Positions 4,441 through 59,722 of a stretch of DNA of 64,000 bases are shown here, piece by piece. Numbering within the stretch: position 1 is the stretch's first letter; each line of letters starts with the position of its first letter. The position numbers and the translations under genes are program-made. Under the pieces are notes generated by a model. It saw only the letters and a list, made by a program, of their open reading frames with translations, was not told where the DNA came from and did not search any database. Source of the stretch: a bacterium (GTDB lineage Bacteria > BMS3Abin14). Location: NCBI GenBank assembly GCA_029210545.1, contig JARGFV010000001.1, forward strand, positions 3,500 to 67,499, read 5' to 3'.

Positions 4441-4803
4441 GACCTTACTCTGCGCCTTTCGGTTCGGAGGCCGGGTTCGGGTGCGACGGCCTTTAGCGAT
4501 TATCGTTCCCGGTTCCTTGTCTGTAAAGACCCAAACCCGGGAACCTGTCGGAGACTCCCTGAAAGGTTCCCGGGTGTCGTATGCCGGAAAGTAATGAAAA
4601 ATGGCCTATGGCCATCAACAATTCCGGTTTGCGGATCTGGAGTGGCAACAACCAGGTGCGCATTAACCGGAAGACCCACGAATACTTTCTCCCTCCTCCC
4701 TCCTCCCTTTTACCTGCTTTTTCACACCAGGGACACTGGACTTGTAAAGGGACCGATGGTACTTTTGTTAGACCGTATACCTTGCTGATTACCGGAGGGT
4801 CCC

Positions 4804-7000: not shown

Positions 7001-7510
7001 GTGAGTGATCTGAAGAAGCTTTTTCGCAAGGAGCACCCCTTCATCACAGAACCGGGCAGCTGGATCCTGGCTGGCCACAGCATGTCGGGAGATCCGCTGG
7101 ATCGCGTGCCCGTACAGGGGCGTATCCAGATCACCCACGAGGAGGGGAAGATCGTCAATCTTGGCGAGATGGGTTTCGTGTCCCGGTCGAACCCCGTGAA
7201 GTTCCAGACGTCCTATGAGCTGACCCCTGCTGAGGACGAGCTGGCCCTGGATTTTTTCCAGGCCAACGACGCGGTCGGGGACCTGAAGGGCCGTTTGGTG
7301 GCATTCGACGACAGGCTTGTCAGCAGTTACACTTCCGGGGATGGAAGCCTGACCGGATTCGAGGTTTTTTTCAGGACCGGTGACAATCGGTACGCGGTCA
7401 CCGGGACCCTGTTGAGTGGAGGTAAGATCATCAGCCTGTGGAAACTGGACATGGTCCGGCCCGCGGCTGAGGAGGCTCGGAAGGATAGCGAGCAGACCGG
7501 CGGGGAATGA
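7001..7510 (+). CDS. Hypothetical protein (169 aa)
   Basis: Same strand as its neighbours in a co-directional run. Chosen over the overlapping 265-aa minus-strand ORF. Confidence 0.35.
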   Translation: MSDLKKLFRKEHPFITEPGSWILAGHSMSGDPLDRVPVQGRIQITHEEGKIVNLGEMGFVSRSNPVKFQTSYELTPAEDELALDFFQANDAVGDLKGRLVAFDDRLVSSYTSGDGSLTGFEVFFRTGDNRYAVTGTLLSGGKIISLWKLDMVRPAAEEARKDSEQTGGE

Positions 7511-7571: not shown

Positions 7572-8945
7572 ATGATCGGTAAACGGATAGCAGTCTGGGT
7601 GCTGGCAGGAGCGGTCCTGGTCACCCTGGGGATGCCGGGGATAGTCAAAGCCGACCCCGTGGCGGAGGCCCAGCAGCTCCAGGAGGGCGGCGATATCACC
7701 GGCGCCTACGAACTCCTCAAAAAGGCCAGCGCCGACCTGAGTGACCAACTTAAAAAGAACAAGGCTGAGTTGAAAACACAGGTTTCAGCCCTGTCGGGTG
7801 TCAAGAGCCAGGAAAAGATGGACGAGATCAGGAAAAAGAACGATGTTCTTCTGGCCGAGCGCAAAGAGCTCAAAGCTCAGCAGGACAAGGTGGACGGGGC
7901 CATGAGCCAGATGACCTCCATCCTCGATTACGCGCCCTACCGGGAAAAGGATACCGCGGAAGCTTACGCCCAGTTCATCGAGAAGTTTCCGGAGAGTCCC
8001 AACGTTGAAGAGGCTGCAACAAGGATGTATGAACTCCAGTTCACACCCTACGAGGAGGCAGCCACCACGGAAGGTTACGAGGAGTTCATCTCAAGGTATC
8101 CTGATAACCCCAACGTTCCCAAGGCCCAGGAGCTTCTGGGGGCGGCCGTCTTCAACCAGTTCAAGGACCAGGGTACGGCCGAGGCCATGCAGGCGTTCAT
8201 CAACGAATACCCCGGCAGTCCCCACGTGGCGGAGGCAGAGGTCCTGATGGTCCAGCTGCAGTATTCTCCCTACAAGGAGCTGGATACCGCTGAAGGGTAC
8301 GCCGAGTTCATTGCGGCCTATCCGGAAAACCCCAGCGTTGCCGAGGCTCAGGCGAGGATGGAGGAACTCCAGTTCCTTCCCTACAAGGAGCAGGACAGCA
8401 TCGACGGTTACACTGAATTCCTGGCTCTTTATCCGGACAACCCCGCCGCGGAGGAGGCTGCAACGAAGCTTGGCGACCTGCAGTACGCTCCCTACAAGGA
8501 GCAGAACACGGCTTCAGGTTACGCGGAATTCCTGGCCCGGTATCCGGAAAGCTCCTTTTCAGGGGAAGCGGCCGAGAGGATGAACTATCTCCAGTTCGTG
8601 GTCTACCAGGAGATGAACACTATCGACGGGTACGAAGAGTTCATCACCAGCTATCCTGAGAACAGCCACGTCGAGGAAGCCAGTTACCTTATCGAGGATC
8701 TCGAGTACGCTCCCTACCAGGAGGCCGGCACCATCGAGTCTCTCGAGGAGTTCATCGAGATGTTCCCCACGAACCGCCACGTCCAGGATGCCCGGACCGC
8801 CATAGAAGAAAAAGAAGCAGCCTCCCTTTCAGCTGAAGGTGCGGAGGACCAGCCCGCCGGGGAAGGTGAAGGGTCAGCTCCCGCCCAAGAGGCTCCGGCC
8901 GGGGGGGGAGAACCCCCGGCTGAAGAGGCGCCACCTGAAAGTTGA
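7572..8945 (+). CDS. Secreted protein with an N-terminal coiled coil, about nine tandem ~38-aa repeats (Y-x-E-x-x-T-x-x-G-Y-x-E-F-I-x-x-Y-P-x-x-P-x-V-x-E-A...LQ[FY]xP), and an acidic Pro/Ala/Glu tail
   Basis: ATG at 7572 preceded by GGAGGA. Signal peptide MIGKRIAVWVLAGAVLVTLGMPGIVKA. Repeat units read directly in the translation. Confidence 0.6.
   Translation: MIGKRIAVWVLAGAVLVTLGMPGIVKADPVAEAQQLQEGGDITGAYELLKKASADLSDQLKKNKAELKTQVSALSGVKSQEKMDEIRKKNDVLLAERKELKAQQDKVDGAMSQMTSILDYAPYREKDTAEAYAQFIEKFPESPNVEEAATRMYELQFTPYEEAATTEGYEEFISRYPDNPNVPKAQELLGAAVFNQFKDQGTAEAMQAFINEYPGSPHVAEAEVLMVQLQYSPYKELDTAEGYAEFIAAYPENPSVAEAQARMEELQFLPYKEQDSIDGYTEFLALYPDNPAAEEAATKLGDLQYAPYKEQNTASGYAEFLARYPESSFSGEAAERMNYLQFVVYQEMNTIDGYEEFITSYPENSHVEEASYLIEDLEYAPYQEAGTIESLEEFIEMFPTNRHVQDARTAIEEKEAASLSAEGAEDQPAGEGEGSAPAQEAPAGGGEPPAEEAPPES
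7928..8810 (+). repeat. Intragenic tandem repeat (~114-120 bp units) encoding the ~38-aa protein repeats
   Basis: Recurrent YxPYxExxT..GYxEF..YP..P.V.EA...LQ motif through the ORF. Confidence 0.6.
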
Positions 8946-12079: not shown

Positions 12080-12256
12080 AACTTTGATGACTTCGCAAAA
12101 AGTCATCAACGCCCCCCGCGCGGGGCGCCCAAATCAATGACTCACTCCGTAAGTCATTGATTTGTAAGGAAAGGGAAAACGACGCTTTTCCCTTTCCCCA
12201 GGACATTAATGAGCCAGGAAAAGTCCCGGATTGGACTTTTTGCGACTCTATCAACC
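12080..12256 (-). repeat. Family-1 MITE-like element, copy A (five-hairpin composite; ends in TIR GTCGCAAAAAGTCC)
   Basis: Shares the ordered hairpin modules with copies at 15654, 19683, 53773 and 57226. Confidence 0.7.
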
Positions 12257-13925
12257 TTGATGGACCCGCAATTAGTCACGCTGCGGTTTTTTCTGGTAGT
12301 TGGTTACCAATGTACGATTGACGTATCATTTTTCTGAAATCGTCCATAGTTGACGACAACAGCTCTTTGACAGCATCAATAAGTCCCAAAACAAGCTGAG
12401 AATGGGGTAAATAAGGCCCGTTGTCTTGGATTTTCCTGTTTCTGAACGTAGCGGCGCGCAGGATGTTGACACCTGTGGCCTTCAGGAAAACCGAGCAGGT
12501 CTCCTTGTCGAAGGCGGCGCTGTGGCGCTCCTTCTTGTGTTTGGTTCTCAACGGCGCATGGCCTTGAGGACAGGAGGTGACCTTCCCTCTCTTGGCCAGG
12601 GTGAAATCGGTGAGGCTTACACTCTTGTCCTTGCCGGGCTCCGGCCCCTTGACGGGCGAGACGACCTCGACGCTCATCTCGCTCGCTGCCTTCTCGACGT
12701 TCTCGTCGCCCCCATAGAGGGTGTCGGCCAGAACCTCCTCGGGACCCAGGTCCCGGTTCTTCGTATCCTCGATGAAGGGGATCAGGGCCTTGGCGTCACT
12801 CTTGTTGGCGGGTTCGACCGATATGTGGGTTATCAGGGAAGGCTGGCTCTTCTCCTCGCTGTTCTCGTAGGTCTCGGCGACCTGTACCTGGTAGCCCTTG
12901 CCCTTGTGCCCACTGTAGCCGGCGTCAGGGTCGGAAGGGCTTTGCAGGGAGTCGGAGGGAACGTCACGGTTGGGTTTGACCGAGGCCTTCCTCTTACCGG
13001 TCTCCCCGTCATCCTCGACAATGCACTGTTCCTTGAGAAGCCTCACCAGAAGCTGGTAGCTGGTCATGGAGGATATGCCGGGAAGTTTGCGGAACCGATC
13101 CACCAGGTAAAACAGGTCATTGGCCAGAGTCTCAAGGGTCCTGGATGACTCGGACGGCTTGACCATGGAAAAAGCCGACTCGCCCTTTTTGGACATGTAA
13201 CGGTCGGTCAGTTCCTTGTCCAGAACATCAAACAGACCCTTGTGGTGACGCTTCAGGTTGCGCAGGAACTTCTTGATAGTGGCGACAAACAGGCCGACGC
13301 GGCCCAGATGACGCATGTTCGACTGTATGTGTACCGAGTCGATGCGCTGCTTGCTGGTGTCGACATTGAACACCACGGCAAGCTTGGCGGTCACGGACTC
13401 GAACAGGGGAAGGTAGAGGTTGTGTTCGGTAAGGATCTTCCGTATGCTCCACAGTGTTTTGGGACTGACATAGGCCTCCTCATCCGACTCACCGGTGATA
13501 TTCAAGGCGTAATGCCACTTTTTGTTGAAAGTAAACTGGTCAACCGCATCGTCATCGGTCAGATCGTGCATCTGCTGGAGGATCATCAGGCCCAGCATGG
13601 CGTATAGCTCCTTGGTGGGACGACCTTGAAGCTCGCTGTAGTGTAGGAGGAGCTTTTGAACCGGCAGTTCAGGAAGGACCTCCTCCCTGAACAGATGAGC
13701 CCAGGAGCTCTCCAGAAGCTTGCGGCGCCTGGGGCCTAAATGCTCGAAAGGATCGAACATGTCGAGGGTTTTGTAGTCTTTGGTATGGAACATGGCAACT
13801 CCTCGCAACTCATTGATTTCGTTGGCATATTCCACCATAAACCACGCCCCGTTAAAAGGAAAAACAACCTTTTATCCATGGTTTTCAAATAGTTGGAAGA
13901 ATGATACTTTTTGCGATGCCGTCAA
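12257..13925 (-). mobile_element. Insertion sequence, boundaries approximate, carrying one transposase gene
   Basis: Single 520-aa transposase ORF flanked by noncoding DNA. Ends were not resolved, and no clean inverted repeats were identified by eye. Confidence 0.4.
12276..13838 (-). CDS. IS transposase (IS5/IS1182-like; DDE family with an N-terminal DUF772-like region)
   Basis: Length and layout match this family. The C-terminal region has a Cys-rich motif (SCPQGH...C). Confidence 0.6.
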   Translation of the reverse strand: MVEYANEINELRGVAMFHTKDYKTLDMFDPFEHLGPRRRKLLESSWAHLFREEVLPELPVQKLLLHYSELQGRPTKELYAMLGLMILQQMHDLTDDDAVDQFTFNKKWHYALNITGESDEEAYVSPKTLWSIRKILTEHNLYLPLFESVTAKLAVVFNVDTSKQRIDSVHIQSNMRHLGRVGLFVATIKKFLRNLKRHHKGLFDVLDKELTDRYMSKKGESAFSMVKPSESSRTLETLANDLFYLVDRFRKLPGISSMTSYQLLVRLLKEQCIVEDDGETGKRKASVKPNRDVPSDSLQSPSDPDAGYSGHKGKGYQVQVAETYENSEEKSQPSLITHISVEPANKSDAKALIPFIEDTKNRDLGPEEVLADTLYGGDENVEKAASEMSVEVVSPVKGPEPGKDKSVSLTDFTLAKRGKVTSCPQGHAPLRTKHKKERHSAAFDKETCSVFLKATGVNILRAATFRNRKIQDNGPYLPHSQLVLGLIDAVKELLSSTMDDFRKMIRQSYIGNQLPEKTAA

Positions 13926-15653: not shown

Positions 15654-15858
15654 TACAGGGTCGCAAAAATGTCCAGGCGGGACTACTGTTAACCGCCAAA
15701 GTCCGTGCGGGCCTTCGGCTCAAGGGAAGGCGAAAAGCGTCGTTTCCGCCTTCCTCACCGAGACTGCTGATAATCACCGACATGTTTGCCGGTCACTGAT
15801 CTATGCGCCCCGCGCGGGGCGCATAGATGGACTTTCTGCATGTCCATCAACTTTGCAG
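15654..15858 (+). repeat. Family-1 MITE-like element, copy B (diverged middle)
   Basis: Starts 4 nt after the stop of the REC-PilZ gene. Carries the conserved end hairpins and the GCGCCCCGCGCGGGGCGC palindrome. Confidence 0.6.
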
Positions 15859-19538: not shown

Positions 19539-19967
19539 CTAGGAATCTGTCGGAGAACCTCCCTGTTTTTAACAGGGAGGGCACAGACTCCTAGCTGGAG
19601 TTTGTCGGAACATATTTTTTTGAGTCTTTTTTTATATAATACCTTGTGTTAACAATGACTTGCAATCTTCACCCGCAACTTTGACAGGGTCGCAAAAAGT
19701 CCAATCCGGGACTTTTCGCTCCACGGAAAGGGAAAAGCGTCATTTTCCCTTTCCTCACGGATCGCTGACATGATTTCCGGTCATCGATCCGGGCGCCCTT
19801 CCCAAGCGCGGCTAGTCATTGATTTGGGCGCCCCGCGCGGGGCGCGTTGATGACTTTTTGCGGGTCCATCAACTTTATCACCTGTTGATCTGAAGGCAAA
19901 AAGCATTAGAAAAGTCGTTCCGACAAACTTTTACGCAGCGTGTCAGGGTTTTCCGACACGCTGCTAG
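19539..19967 (+). repeat. Family-2 MITE-like element, copy a, carrying a nested family-1 element
   Basis: Left TIR/hairpin CTAGGAATCTGTCGGAGAACC...GACTCCTAG. Right end CAGCGTGTCAGGGTTTTCCGACACGCTGCTAG. Internal sequence matches the copy at 59563. Confidence 0.65.
19683..19880 (+). repeat. Family-1 MITE-like element, copy C (nested in family-2 copy a)
   Basis: Begins GACAGGGTCGCAAAAAGTCC and ends GACTTTTTGCGGGTCCATCAAC. Contains all five hairpin modules. Confidence 0.75.
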
Positions 19968-28164: not shown

Positions 28165-29160
28165 TTACTGCCTACTGATTACTTTTCTCAGCACCCACAT
28201 CCCCTTCTCATCTGTGTAGCTTTGCACTCTTCCATCCACAACCTCGACCTGGAGCTGCTTTCCGATGCCGGGTGAGGCCTCGAGAAACCTTTCCTCCAGA
28301 GCCTTCACACCTTTATCTTCCAGTCCGACCCTCCGTGCCCACTCCTCGAAGGGATGGGTACGGCTGAACAGATCAAAAGAGACGACCTCCAGACCAGCCT
28401 GGGCGATCAACCCTGCCCACCCATTGACCGTATCCGACCTGACGTGACTCGGATCACGCTGTCGCTCCACCTCGTTGAGGAACCTGTCACATTCCGGGTC
28501 ATCTGGAACGATACTGTCGATGATCACGGCACAGCCATCCCTGGCCAGGACACGCCTGACCTCGCGCAGGAAATTTTTCAGGGAGGGGAAATGATGTGGC
28601 GCGACGCGGCAGGTCAGAAGCTGGATACAACCGTTACCTAGGAGCCTGTCGGAGAACCCCATGCAGGCTCCTAGATATAGTTTTTCGGAAGTAGCATTTA
28701 GACCGAAAAAAACAAATATATGGCACATTTGGTAATTCACCGGAGTTATTTACCGGTTTAATGCTCTTGTTTTCAAGAAAAGACCCAAAAAAGGGCTTTC
28801 CGAAAAACCTACAGCAGCGTGTCAAGAGGTTTTCCGACACGCTGCCAGGGGCAGGTTCTCGGCCGACGACTGGACCAGCATCAGGTCCGTGATCCCGATC
28901 CCGGCAAGGTGTGTCCTCGTCACCTGGAGCATCTCCATGGTCAGGTCCAGCCCAATGCAGCGGCCCGACAGGGGAGCCGCCGCTCTTAACGCATGTCCGG
29001 CTCCCGTCGCGACATCCACGGTCAATGCCGGGCAATGCTCATACGCCACCTTCCGGATAAGGGCAAGGTCCGGTCCCGTTCCATGATCGGAACTCGAAAG
29101 ATATCTGTCGGCACTTGCCGAGAAGGTATTCCGCGGATCACTGCTCCGGGCGGAGGTCAC
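28165..29160 (-). pseudogene. Class I SAM-dependent methyltransferase (UbiE/Methyltransf_11-like) split by a family-2 MITE
   Basis: N-terminal half (motif I VDVATGAGHA ... SSAENLPL) runs from a GTG start at 29160 to 28846. GTG and the rlmD stop share the GTGA overlap. C-terminal half (GNGCIQLLTCRVAPHHF ... ) resumes at 28638. Removing 28639-28845 (207 nt) rejoins both halves in frame. Confidence 0.7.
28638..28848 (+). repeat. Family-2 MITE-like element, copy b, inserted in a methyltransferase gene
   Basis: Left hairpin CTAGGAGCCTGTCGGAGAACCCCATGCAGGCTCCTAG. AT-rich core. Right hairpin CAGCAGCGTGTCAAGAGGTTTTCCGACACGCTGCC. Confidence 0.75.
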
Positions 29161-30452
29161 AGCCCCAGCTCCAGTACGGTGATCGATTCGACATGGGATG
29201 TCTGTGGGAACATATCCAGAAGTTCCATGGTCCGGATACCGTAACCCGCCGCTGTCAGGCGCGCAAGGTCGCGAGCTAGGGTCGCAGGTTCGCACGAAAC
29301 ATATACGATTAGCGGGGGGGAGATCCTTGCGAGCTTTTCTACCAGCGGAGCGGGGAGCCCCGTACGGGGAGGATCCGCCACGACCACGTCCCACCGATCG
29401 AAGGAGCCTGACAGGTACTCTGCCGCATCCGCAGTTACGAACCGGCACCCATCAGGAGCGGCATCCATGGCATCCCTGACCGCACCGGGGGAAGATTCCA
29501 CACCGAGGACCCTGAACCCCGCGGCGGCCGCCGGTATGCTCAAGTTGCCGTTGCCGCAGTAAAGATCCAGGAGGAGGCGTCCATCGCCGGGTCCGAGGTG
29601 ATGCTCGACCCTCTCCACCAGGATCTCGTTCACAGCCGGATTGACCTGGAGAAACGTCCCCGGAGAGGCCTTCACTGGTTTCCCGCGCACCTTGAAATGC
29701 AGACCGCCCCCCCTGTCCGCAACGACCTTTCCCCTGTTCGCGATACTGACCCCCTGGCCTGCGAGAGGGATACCGGCAGAAAGGAGGGCGGATTCAACGT
29801 TATCGAGGACCGCAGATCCCATCGACCGGCGGCGGCCCGGTTCGAAGACCCACATGGCGGTCATGCTTTCTGCCGCCGGGTCCGCCGCTAGCTCCAGGTC
29901 CCTCAAGCGCCCATCCACACCTCTCCCGTCCAGGGCCTCGCGAAGGACCTCAACGGTCCGGTTCAGGAGATCGGGCAGCAGCAGGCACTTCTCCCACGAG
30001 ACCACGGCCCTTGAACTTCTCCGGTAAAAACCGAACCGCTTCCCATCGTACTTGAGCCTGATCCGATGCCGGTAGCCGAACTCGGCGGGAGAGCTGTGGA
30101 CTTTAACCGGAACCACCTCCGGCAAACCGGCGATCCTCCCCACCGTCTCCGAATAAACGGTCCTCTTCCACTGAAGCTGGGCAGGGTAGGGCAGATGCAT
30201 CCACTGGCAACCGCCGCATTTCCCGAACCACGGGCACGGCGCTTCCCGTCTTTCACCTGACCGGCTGATGACAGAGCTGTCCCGGGCGAAAAGGACCCCG
30301 CGCGCCTTTCGAACCTCCTTCGGGATGACGACATCGCCTGGAGCTGTTAAAGGAACAAAAACAGGGTAGCCATCCAGGTGGCCCAGTCCATCACCACCGG
30401 ATACGAGTTTTTCTATGAGAACCTTACATTTTGAGGACACCGGCTTATTCAT
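29157..30452 (-). CDS. rlmD: 23S rRNA (uracil-5)-methyltransferase RlmD/RumA family (TRAM + class I MTase)
   Basis: N-terminal TRAM domain. Motifs LDLYCGNGNLSIP and VVADPPRTG. Start taken at internal ATG 30452 (MNKPVSS...). Confidence 0.7.
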   Translation of the reverse strand: MNKPVSSKCKVLIEKLVSGGDGLGHLDGYPVFVPLTAPGDVVIPKEVRKARGVLFARDSSVISRSGERREAPCPWFGKCGGCQWMHLPYPAQLQWKRTVYSETVGRIAGLPEVVPVKVHSSPAEFGYRHRIRLKYDGKRFGFYRRSSRAVVSWEKCLLLPDLLNRTVEVLREALDGRGVDGRLRDLELAADPAAESMTAMWVFEPGRRRSMGSAVLDNVESALLSAGIPLAGQGVSIANRGKVVADRGGGLHFKVRGKPVKASPGTFLQVNPAVNEILVERVEHHLGPGDGRLLLDLYCGNGNLSIPAAAAGFRVLGVESSPGAVRDAMDAAPDGCRFVTADAAEYLSGSFDRWDVVVADPPRTGLPAPLVEKLARISPPLIVYVSCEPATLARDLARLTAAGYGIRTMELLDMFPQTSHVESITVLELGL

Positions 30453-53725: not shown

Positions 53726-53772
53726 AACCTCTCCTCAAAAAACGGAGCGGTTTTAAGTAAAATTCCAAATTT

Positions 53773-53932
53773 GATAGGGTCGCGAAAAGTCCAATCCGGG
53801 ACTTTTCGCTCCACGGAAAGGGGAAAGCGTGGTTTTCCCTTTCCTTATAAATCAATGACTTACAGTGTGAGTCATTGATTTGGGCGCCCCGCGCGGGGCG
53901 CGTTGATGGACTTTTTGCGAGTCCATCAAATT
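53773..53932 (+). repeat. Family-1 MITE-like element, copy D
   Basis: GATAGGGTCGCGAAAAGTCC ... GGACTTTTTGCGAGTCCATCAAA. All five hairpins present. Confidence 0.75.
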
Positions 53933-54591
53933 TCGGTTCATCACAATAATGCGTACCTGTGTGTTGTCACTCCAGGACTCTTAAAGGCGATCACCACGGA
54001 GCACACAAAGAAAGCCTGAACCTGGGGGAAGACTCAGGCGCGCACCGCAAAACCCCTGAACCCTGGCGCGAAGCGCCCTTCGATCACGCCGTTGGCGTGA
54101 TAAAGCCGGGCGGAGCGGCCTTTAGCTGACCGCGCTCCCCAGAATCTCGATTGAATTGATTTTCGAGATTCTGGGGATAAAAAAACCCCATTGGCGTGGT
54201 AAGTTACGTTTCAAGCTTGAAACGACCCATGACACAATGACAGCCCATGCCGGTCTGGCCCGGGCGAGTTCGCGGAAGGGAGCAGGCTTCCCTTTCTGGT
54301 GGACCGTCACCTGCCGTTGCCCGGCAGCGGGGCCGGTTATCGTCCGTCGGAGTTCGTGATGCCATACCCGAAATTCGCCGAAAGCGCCCTTTCGGTCGGG
54401 GCTGGACGGTCAACGAGTGACGTAGGGCGGCAAGTTCAACAGCAACACGGCTCCATGCAAAAAATAGCCCCCTCAATGCCCCGACCGGAGGCCAGCCAAA
54501 ACCAATCGCGGATTTCGGGTGGTTAGTTGGCTTTTTCCTGCAATAGCGTTAATAACTGTTTTTTAGCTGTTAGCTGCCTGTTGGAGATCCA

Positions 54592-57225: not shown

Positions 57226-57380
57226 GATGGACTCGCAAAAAGTCCATCAACGCACCCCGCGCGGGGTGCCCAAATCAATGACCTGTACCGTAAGTCATTG
57301 ATTTGTAAGGAAAGGGAAAACGACGCTTTTCCCTTTCCGTTGAGCAAAAAGTCCCGGATCGGACTTTTTGCGACCCTGTC
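57226..57380 (-). repeat. Family-1 MITE-like element, copy E, between amrS and the amrB-amrA fusion
   Basis: Reverse-orientation copy with all modules. Ends GGACTTTTTGCGACCCTGTC. Confidence 0.75.
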
Positions 57381-57454
57381 AAGGAAGAGCTTGCAAAAAA
57401 GTCCTTCCATTGAATCATTCCCTTTGTTCTTAAGTAACATGAGGGCAACCTAAA

Positions 57455-59400: not shown

Positions 59401-59562
59401 TACTTTCTGATATTCGGGAACGGCACTGTACCGGTTTGCCGCTCAGGTTTTTCCGGGATGATCCAAAATCCTGATTTCACCGGAGAGAACGCGAAAGAGG
59501 TCGTACTGTGGTAAGTTAGCCTTTGACCTCCTTTGTAAGCTTTGCCATTCACCTAGGAGTCT

Positions 59563-59722
59563 GTCGGAGAACCTCATACAGACTCCTAGCTGGAGTTTAT
59601 CGGAAAATGGCATGTTTAAAAAAACCAAGCAATTCGGATAGTTACAACCGACTTTAATAAAAAGAATCATCTTCCGACAAACATATCTAGCAGCGTATCG
59701 GGGTTTTCCGACACGCTGCTAG
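59563..59722 (+). repeat. Family-2 MITE-like element, copy c
   Basis: CTAGGAGTCTGTCGGAGAACCTCATACAGACTCCTAG ... CAGCGTATCGGGGTTTTCCGACACGCTGCTAG. Confidence 0.75.

Follow-up and report, generated by a model that had tools for sequence, protein, structure and literature searches.

Small palindromic repeats that can lie in or near bacterial coding sequence and alter products or expression are exemplified by the Rickettsia palindromic elements, which are translated in frame within the host protein, and by the Correia elements of Neisseria. Transposons of the IS1182 family are larger; ISPse1 is 1653 bp long, with inverted repeats matching at 16 of 16 positions and 4-bp direct repeats (PMC3281130), and ISPsy36 is 1666 bp long, uses the palindromic target GGCC and disrupts hrpR (PMC8027508). 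An IS1182-derived MITE, MITEPye1, has been described from Paracoccus yeei, with 18-bp terminal inverted repeats (TIRs), 4-bp direct repeats and copies reported in intergenic regions (PMC11578231).

The element described here lies within a methyltransferase gene in a 64-kb window (the whole stretch of DNA that was analyzed). Like MITEPye1, it is short, has no ORF, carries IS1182-like TIRs of ∼18 bp and probable 4-bp direct repeats, is present in several copies per genome, forms predicted stem-loops and is presumed to be mobilized in trans; no sequence relation between the two is apparent, and they are set side by side by description only. It differs from MITEPye1 in its position within a gene, in the foldbacks at its two ends and in its membership of a ∼200-nt family seen in sediment-type metagenomes. 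Three full-length elements bearing the family's ends (L041, L027, and L052, see below) resemble ISPse1 and ISPsy36 in their size of 1.5 to 1.6 kb, their one DDE transposase (444–453 aa) and their 4-nt palindromic flanks, whereas the window element has no transposase and its target palindrome is CTAG rather than GGCC. It differs from the Rickettsia elements in that an in-frame stop after seven codons cuts the protein, and from the Correia elements in that a promoter scan found no outward Correia-type promoter.

A methyltransferase gene next to rlmD is split by an insertion

The interrupted gene and its upstream neighbor are arranged as follows:

29157–30452, minus strand: rlmD-like 23S rRNA U-C5 methyltransferase gene (NCBIfam TIGR00479 RlmD, 218.9 bits, cutoff 183.55)
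28846–29160, minus strand: N-terminal half of a class I SAM-dependent methyltransferase, codons 1 to 105 (Methyltransf_11 profile positions 1–57)
28642–28844, minus strand: MITE of 203 nt, a full-length member of a ∼200-nt family with IS1182-type ends (56–85% full-length identity to 13 metagenome copies)
28165–28638, minus strand: C-terminal half of the methyltransferase, codons 106 to 262 plus stop (Methyltransf_11 profile positions 61–95)

The GTG start of the interrupted gene (29160–29158) overlaps the rlmD TGA (29159–29157) by 4 nt, GTGA. The N-terminal half contains motif I (VDVATGAGHA), and its last host codons (...SSAENLPL) end at 28846; past this point, the frame continues through seven element-encoded codons (AACRKTS) to a TGA at 28824–28822, giving a product of 112 aa. 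The C-terminal half begins with GNGCIQLLTCR at 28638 (reading GNGCIQLLTCRVAPHHF...) and stops at 28165. An earlier, sequence-only reading of this DNA had placed the GTGA overlap, the end of one half and the beginning of the other at these same positions, and had noted a stop for the upstream half within the element; all were confirmed. Because the stop follows after seven element codons, the fact that the insert is in frame is without consequence for the N-terminal half. The gene downstream of the interrupted methyltransferase is a convergent ppiD, so no polar effect on it arises.

In silico removal of 28639–28845 (207 nt) yields a 262-aa ORF that aligns with Pfam Methyltransf_11 over positions 1–95 of 95 in one stretch (E 6.8e-15), as expected from the earlier proposal that a single methyltransferase gene has been split. 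The class I SAM-methyltransferase domain is contiguous only once the insert is removed in this way. Pfam positions 57 and 61 flank the break, which follows the strand ending ...VQSSAENLPL and precedes the LLTCR strand. At the codon level, the insert separates Leu from Gly in the ENLPL-GNG loop, which is placed between strands 3 and 4 of the Rossmann fold. None of the NCBIfam equivalog cutoffs is reached by the rejoined methyltransferase, and therefore no substrate is assigned.

A database search returned 725 homologs with E ≤ 1e-10, the closest intact ones being 260 to 280 aa long and 66 to 74% identical. In an alignment with 13 intact homologs (51–73% identity), the rejoined protein is gap-free across the junction and keeps every family-invariant residue. 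The junction residues in these homologs are PL-G/A-D/N-G/S, with ENLPL-GNG aligned to ESMPL-ADG, ENMPL-GDS, or EMMPL-GNS. Inspection of the orthologous loci, which the sequence-only reading had proposed as a check, showed an intact gene between the same neighbors: the gene order at the closest intact homologs is rlmD-type, methyltransferase, convergent ppiD-type, mreB, mreC, and the 4-nt overlap between the rlmD and methyltransferase genes (ATGA or GTGA) recurs in the four orthologous loci L060 to L063. The same-order orthologs have 0 extra residues at the insertion site, a comparison made at the protein level only, at 66 to 74% identity. Orthologue codons at the insertion point are CCC CTG GGT, CCC CTG GCC, or CCC CTC GGC. 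The uninterrupted nucleotide site (AACCTGCCCCTRGGTAACGGTTG) had no match in the metagenome contigs.

A second MAG shares the insertion

Through the 112-aa fragment and cluster member P0121, we reached a second MAG, GCA_032250785.1, with the same insertion on two contigs that are 99.6 to 99.7% identical to the window. Its annotation lists the identical 112-aa N-terminal protein and a C-terminal protein of 165 aa that is 99% identical to that of the window. The two contigs (L064, at its end, and L065, at its start) break in the MITE interior, at positions corresponding to 28769 and 28766 and 2 nt apart, and both gene/element junctions match those of the window. Since both MAGs carry the same junctions, the insertion predates the split of the two strains.

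The two MAGs differ at two positions in the C-terminal half, both non-synonymous, and at none in the N-terminal half, numbers too small for conclusions. Neither half has a further stop or frameshift and there is thus no visible decay, at a divergence of 0.3 to 0.4% that gives no power to such a comparison. The absence of decay would fit a recent event, and retained function would also be compatible with it.

Ends, flanks, and copies of the inserted element

The following features define the element, with ends named in the sense of the gene:

28828–28844, minus strand: terminal inverted repeat, upstream end, CAGCGTGTCGGAAAACC (14/17 against the reverse complement of the other end)
28642–28658, minus strand: terminal inverted repeat, downstream end, GGTTCTCCGACAGGCTC (outermost 22 nt, CTAG included, as in the IS1182-family element ends of L041 and L052)
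28845–28848, minus strand: target tetranucleotide, upstream copy, CTGG (3/4 against CTAG)
28638–28641, minus strand: target tetranucleotide, downstream copy, CTAG (in both flanks of 25 out of 40 paired elements)
28814–28845, minus strand: upstream foldback hairpin, TIR plus its outer 10 nt in inverted orientation (−12.6 kcal/mol, z −5.45, folded as DNA), with TAGGTTTTTC next to it, terminator-like
28638–28674, minus strand: downstream foldback hairpin, TIR plus CTAG plus inverted copy, with an ATG in the loop (−13.1 kcal/mol, z −5.61; RNA fold)
28660–28672, minus strand: AGGAG at 28672–28668, 5-nt spacer, ATG at 28662–28660, start of the annotated 165-aa fragment

The upstream TIR matches the reverse complement of the downstream end, GAGCCTGTCGGAGAACC, at 14 of 17 positions and the left TIR of the full-length IS in L041 at 15 of 17. 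At both ends of the element, the outer 10 to 11 nt are repeated in inverted orientation 12 to 15 nt further in, and the predicted DNA hairpins of these foldbacks range from −12.6 to −15.7 kcal/mol (z −5 to −8). Apart from the host frame that runs into them, the 203 nt contain no ORF. Neither end pattern was matched in any of 100 shuffled versions of the window, so that chance does not account for the element. Its TIRs, its flanking target copies, its several copies in the window, the lack of an ORF and the ends it has in common with autonomous elements identify the insert as a MITE. The earlier description of a 207-nt MITE holds for the added length, which is 207 nt and a multiple of 3, but not for the mobile unit, which is 203 nt (28642–28844); the remaining 4 nt are the second copy of the target, and the sum fits the spacing in the orthologs. 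Deleting 28639–28845 restores the same sequence as removing the element together with one flank copy.

The two flank copies of the genic element are not the same, the upstream one being CTGG and the downstream one CTAG. This points either to a single-base mutation since the element arrived or to an event other than a plain duplication. The target could originally have read CTAG, in which CTA likewise specifies Leu, and have mutated afterwards in its upstream copy; the corresponding plus-strand change, CTAGG to CCAGG, is in the direction favored by very-short-patch repair in organisms that have this repair. Alternatively, the target originally read CTGG, as it does in two orthologs, and its downstream copy mutated or took its sequence from the element as template. 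CTGG paired with CTAG is also found in several relatives, and one metagenome copy has CTGG on both sides (loci L075, L082, L085, and L089).

The window contains three full copies of the MITE with different flanks, which share an end pair that starts with CAGCGTGTCGGAAAACC and finishes with GGTTCTCCGACAG(G/A)(C/T)TC in the sense of the gene. The other two copies, and an isolated foldback, are:

59557–59718, minus strand: second MITE copy, 162 nt, intergenic, CTAG on both sides (end-pair match)
19543–19963, minus strand: third MITE copy, 421 nt, intergenic, CTAG on both sides (unrelated multi-hairpin repeat nested inside; loop without ATG)
4535–4577, minus strand: isolated foldback related to the downstream MITE end (CCCGGG where others have CCTAGG)

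No partner end for the isolated foldback was found nearby. It keeps the loop motif TCTCCGACAG, and its stem reads CCCGGGAACCT/AGGTTCCCGGG against CTAGGAGCCTG/CAGGCTCCTAG elsewhere, several stem positions being altered on both arms together. Across the family the stem is GAGCCTG/CAGGCTC or GAGTCTG/CAGACTC, again with compensated changes.

The ends are those of IS1182-family transposons

We scanned one genome per species with the 22-mer GGTTCTCCGACAGNCTCCTAGG and obtained 59 loci (L001–L059), none from the window's own genome, in MAGs labeled as belonging to >10 phyla and many of them at contig ends. Pairing of left and right ends in these loci gave 40 elements, most of them 110 to 200 nt long, and 25 of the 40 have CTAG on both sides with unrelated sequence beyond. 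Three end pairs are 1532, 1575, and 1602 nt apart (L041, L027, and L052, respectively), each enclosing a single ORF of 444 to 453 aa, and these full-length elements with MITE ends are likewise flanked by CTAG. Against the NCBIfam model for IS1182 family transposases, NF033551 (cutoff 270 bits), the ORFs of L041 and L052 reach 375 and 371 bits, and they carry the Pfam DUF772 and DDE transposase (DDE_Tnp_1) domains. The third full-length transposase is 61% identical to the first, and partial copies adjoin the same end in six more loci. The terminal 22 nt of the MITE, CTAG included, are 100% identical to the element ends of L041 and L052; beyond the terminal 21 to 22 nt, the MITE interior shares no sequence with the full-length elements. 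The CTAG flanks of full-length elements and MITEs fit 4-bp direct repeats, and a 2-nt TA duplication fits them too. A tblastn search with the IS1182 transposase found no transposase gene in the 64-kb window.

When metagenomes were scanned with the other end, CTRGCAGCGTGTCGGAAAACC, 38 loci were recovered. From these, 13 elements, 184 to 230 nt long, align with the genic copy over its full length at 56 to 85% identity, sharing its internal AT-rich sequence and both ends. Because these 13 match it end to end, the genic copy is a typical full-length member of the ∼200-nt family.

The exact 17-nt end with CTAG occurs in MAGs labeled as, among others, WOR-3, Planctomycetota, Anaerolineae, Latescibacterota, Acidobacteria, Myxococcales, and one Thermoplasmata archaeon, and the sequence just inside the 17-nt end varies between lineages. 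The multi-phylum distribution could be due to broad horizontal transfer of a single IS1182 subgroup or to contamination of some bins. Locus L059 has, at 7251–7451, a head-to-tail pair of MITEs (77 and 120 nt) with one CTAG common to both, which suggests that the CTAG adjoining an existing copy was itself used as a target.

An ATG supplied by the element opens the annotated C-terminal fragment

The sequence-only reading had noted an ATG inside the insert, followed by MGFSDRLLG, and the same type of peptide in a second copy. Both were found: the ATG lies at 28662–28660, and the copy at 59557–59718 encodes MRFSDRLLG from an ATG at 59577–59575. In the genic copy, the ATG is in the loop of the downstream foldback and AGGAG is supplied by the inner arm of the same foldback. 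NCBI annotates the 165-aa fragment (MDF1534895.1) and the 112-aa fragment (MDF1534896.1) as separate proteins, not as one pseudogene, and the halves in the second MAG are likewise separate records (MDT8396376.1 and MDT8395226.1). The 165-aa record opens with MGFSDRLLG, nine residues read from the element ATG, of which seven codons are transposon end.

The further suggestion of that reading, that the element drives expression of a C-terminal fragment, was unsupported. A consensus scan of 28400–29000 on either strand found no sigma-70-like promoter, and the one terminator-like site in the promoter/terminator scan is formed by the upstream foldback and the adjoining TAGGTTTTTC. RNA folding (−87.5 kcal/mol, z −6.6) predicts that both AGGAG and ATG are base-paired as part of a 14-bp stem. 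The loop that holds the ATG is the most variable part of the family; in the third window copy and roughly half of the ∼200-nt copies from metagenomes, the ATG is missing or its frame stops at CTAG. An Rfam scan of 28400–29100 with E up to 10 gave only mir-572 and SNORA13, at chance level and far below their gathering scores.

We also considered the element ATG as a systematic opener of long ORFs. All fetched sequence contained 16 distinct occurrences of this start, and the idea was rejected, most of the ORFs being 13 to 66 codons long.

Class I methyltransferases have motif I and the acidic post-I residue early in the fold, with the later motifs after them. Because motif I and post-I lie in the N-terminal piece, the 165-aa fragment would be unable to bind SAM in the usual way, judging from its sequence.

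Interpretation of the interrupted gene

Very probably, a ∼200-nt non-autonomous transposon inserted at CT(A/G)G in the methyltransferase gene after rlmD and left a recent pseudogene in two pieces. The element would presumably have been mobilized in trans by an IS1182-family DDE transposase, and its insertion between the Leu and Gly codons would have duplicated the 4-nt target, accounting for the 207 nt added. The upstream frame would then end after seven element codons to give the 112-aa product, and the downstream 157 codons would be without a start of their own, save for a fortuitous ATG in the terminal hairpin loop. The insertion with its boundaries and family, its occurrence in two MAGs and the intact orthologs are shown directly, and from them we infer mobilization by an IS1182-type transposase, loss of function, and no expression of the C-terminal piece; the interrupted gene is most likely a recently made pseudogene. 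The event is an ordinary gene disruption by a transposon and involves no new mechanism.

Three other accounts of the locus were weighed against this one. The MITE could act as a mobile translation start through its AGGAG and ATG, with transcription that begins in the element or passes through it, giving a free-standing 165-aa C-terminal fragment with some activity or halves that reassemble as a split methyltransferase. AGGAG does lie 5 nt upstream of the ATG at 28662, the frame is open through the TIR and flank, the same start occurs in the second copy and in about half of the family, both halves are free of stops, the insertion has been kept in two strains, and both ORFs are called by NCBI. 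We nevertheless consider this account unlikely, given that the element has a terminator-like hairpin at its upstream end and no promoter-like site was found in it, that AGGAG and ATG are predicted to be paired in the 14-bp stem, and that the ATG sits in a variable loop, is missing from the third copy and many relatives, and elsewhere mostly opens the short ORFs described above. The fragment, moreover, has neither motif I nor post-I, Pfam positions 1–57 being in the other half, and both of the C-terminal-half differences between the MAGs change amino acids. An interruption produced by misassembly or misbinning, with a repeat misjoined into the gene, is extremely improbable. MITE copies often terminate contigs in other MAGs and the contigs of the second MAG break inside this same element, as such an error might produce; however, the same junctions occur on both sides in two independent assemblies, only 2 nt separate the two contig ends of the second MAG, and the junctions fall exactly at the TIR ends with their target copies. 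It is the recurrence of both junctions in the second MAG that makes an assembly artifact so unlikely.

The insert might also be a repeat of a different kind, namely an IS200/IS605-type palindrome-associated element, an IS630/Tc1-mariner MITE with a TA duplication inside CTAG, or a REP-like sequence. Each end is at first sight a hairpin of its own with no obvious TIR, and CTAG is the classic IS630 target. It has also been reported as the target of ISPsy32 (PMC8027508). A TA duplication with G...C as the outermost bases of the element would, in addition, look the same here as a duplication of CTAG. We regard this possibility as very improbable, since the ends are mutually inverted repeats (14/17), the full-length elements with the same 22-nt ends encode IS1182-family DDE transposases above the NCBI curated cutoff and encode no IS630, TnpA, or TnpB protein, and the 207 nt added fit 203 + 4. 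An IS200/IS605 palindrome-associated element was accordingly rejected on the presence of TIRs, CTAG on both sides, and DDE transposases in the partner elements, and an IS630/Tc1-mariner MITE on its ends being inverted repeats and its partner elements encoding DDE transposases.

A further proposal, which we regard as decidedly unlikely, is that the foldbacks at the ends are not a by-product but a maintained functional feature of the family, for transposition or at the RNA level. The foldback stem could be needed for transposition, for example through recognition of the hairpin or through seamless, piggyBac-like excision at the 4-nt palindrome that restores the gene; it could instead act in RNA, as a terminator or as a switch that masks the Shine-Dalgarno sequence and ATG. 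Were the foldbacks functional in one of these ways, the gene would not have reached a dead end, and its interruption would be reversible or subject to regulation.

The value of the locus is mainly one of annotation. The two NCBI records of 112 and 165 aa are halves of one disrupted gene, and the 165-aa 'methyltransferase' record starts at a codon supplied by a transposon. The analysis also defines a ∼200-nt MITE family whose near-invariant 17-nt end and CTAG target are tied to IS1182-family transposases and found in MAGs assigned to >10 phyla; it is useful for repeat masking and may explain many matches at contig ends. The event has no bearing on open questions about methyltransferases or transposition.

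Other repeats in the window

A second, unrelated repeat family of ∼170 to 200 nt has five copies in the window (12084–12259, 15709–15854, 19676–19877, 53766–53933, and 57226–57382), one of them nested in the third MITE copy. Its copies contain four or five hairpins, for example GGCGCCCCGCGCGGGGCGCC, GGAAAGGGAAAA...TTTTCCCTTTCC, and TTGATGGAC...GTCCATCAA, and it could be another MITE or a REP-like element. Direct repeats at 7935–8666, in five copies with a spacing of 111 nt and 60 to 70% identity, are probably a 37-residue repeat in a coding region.
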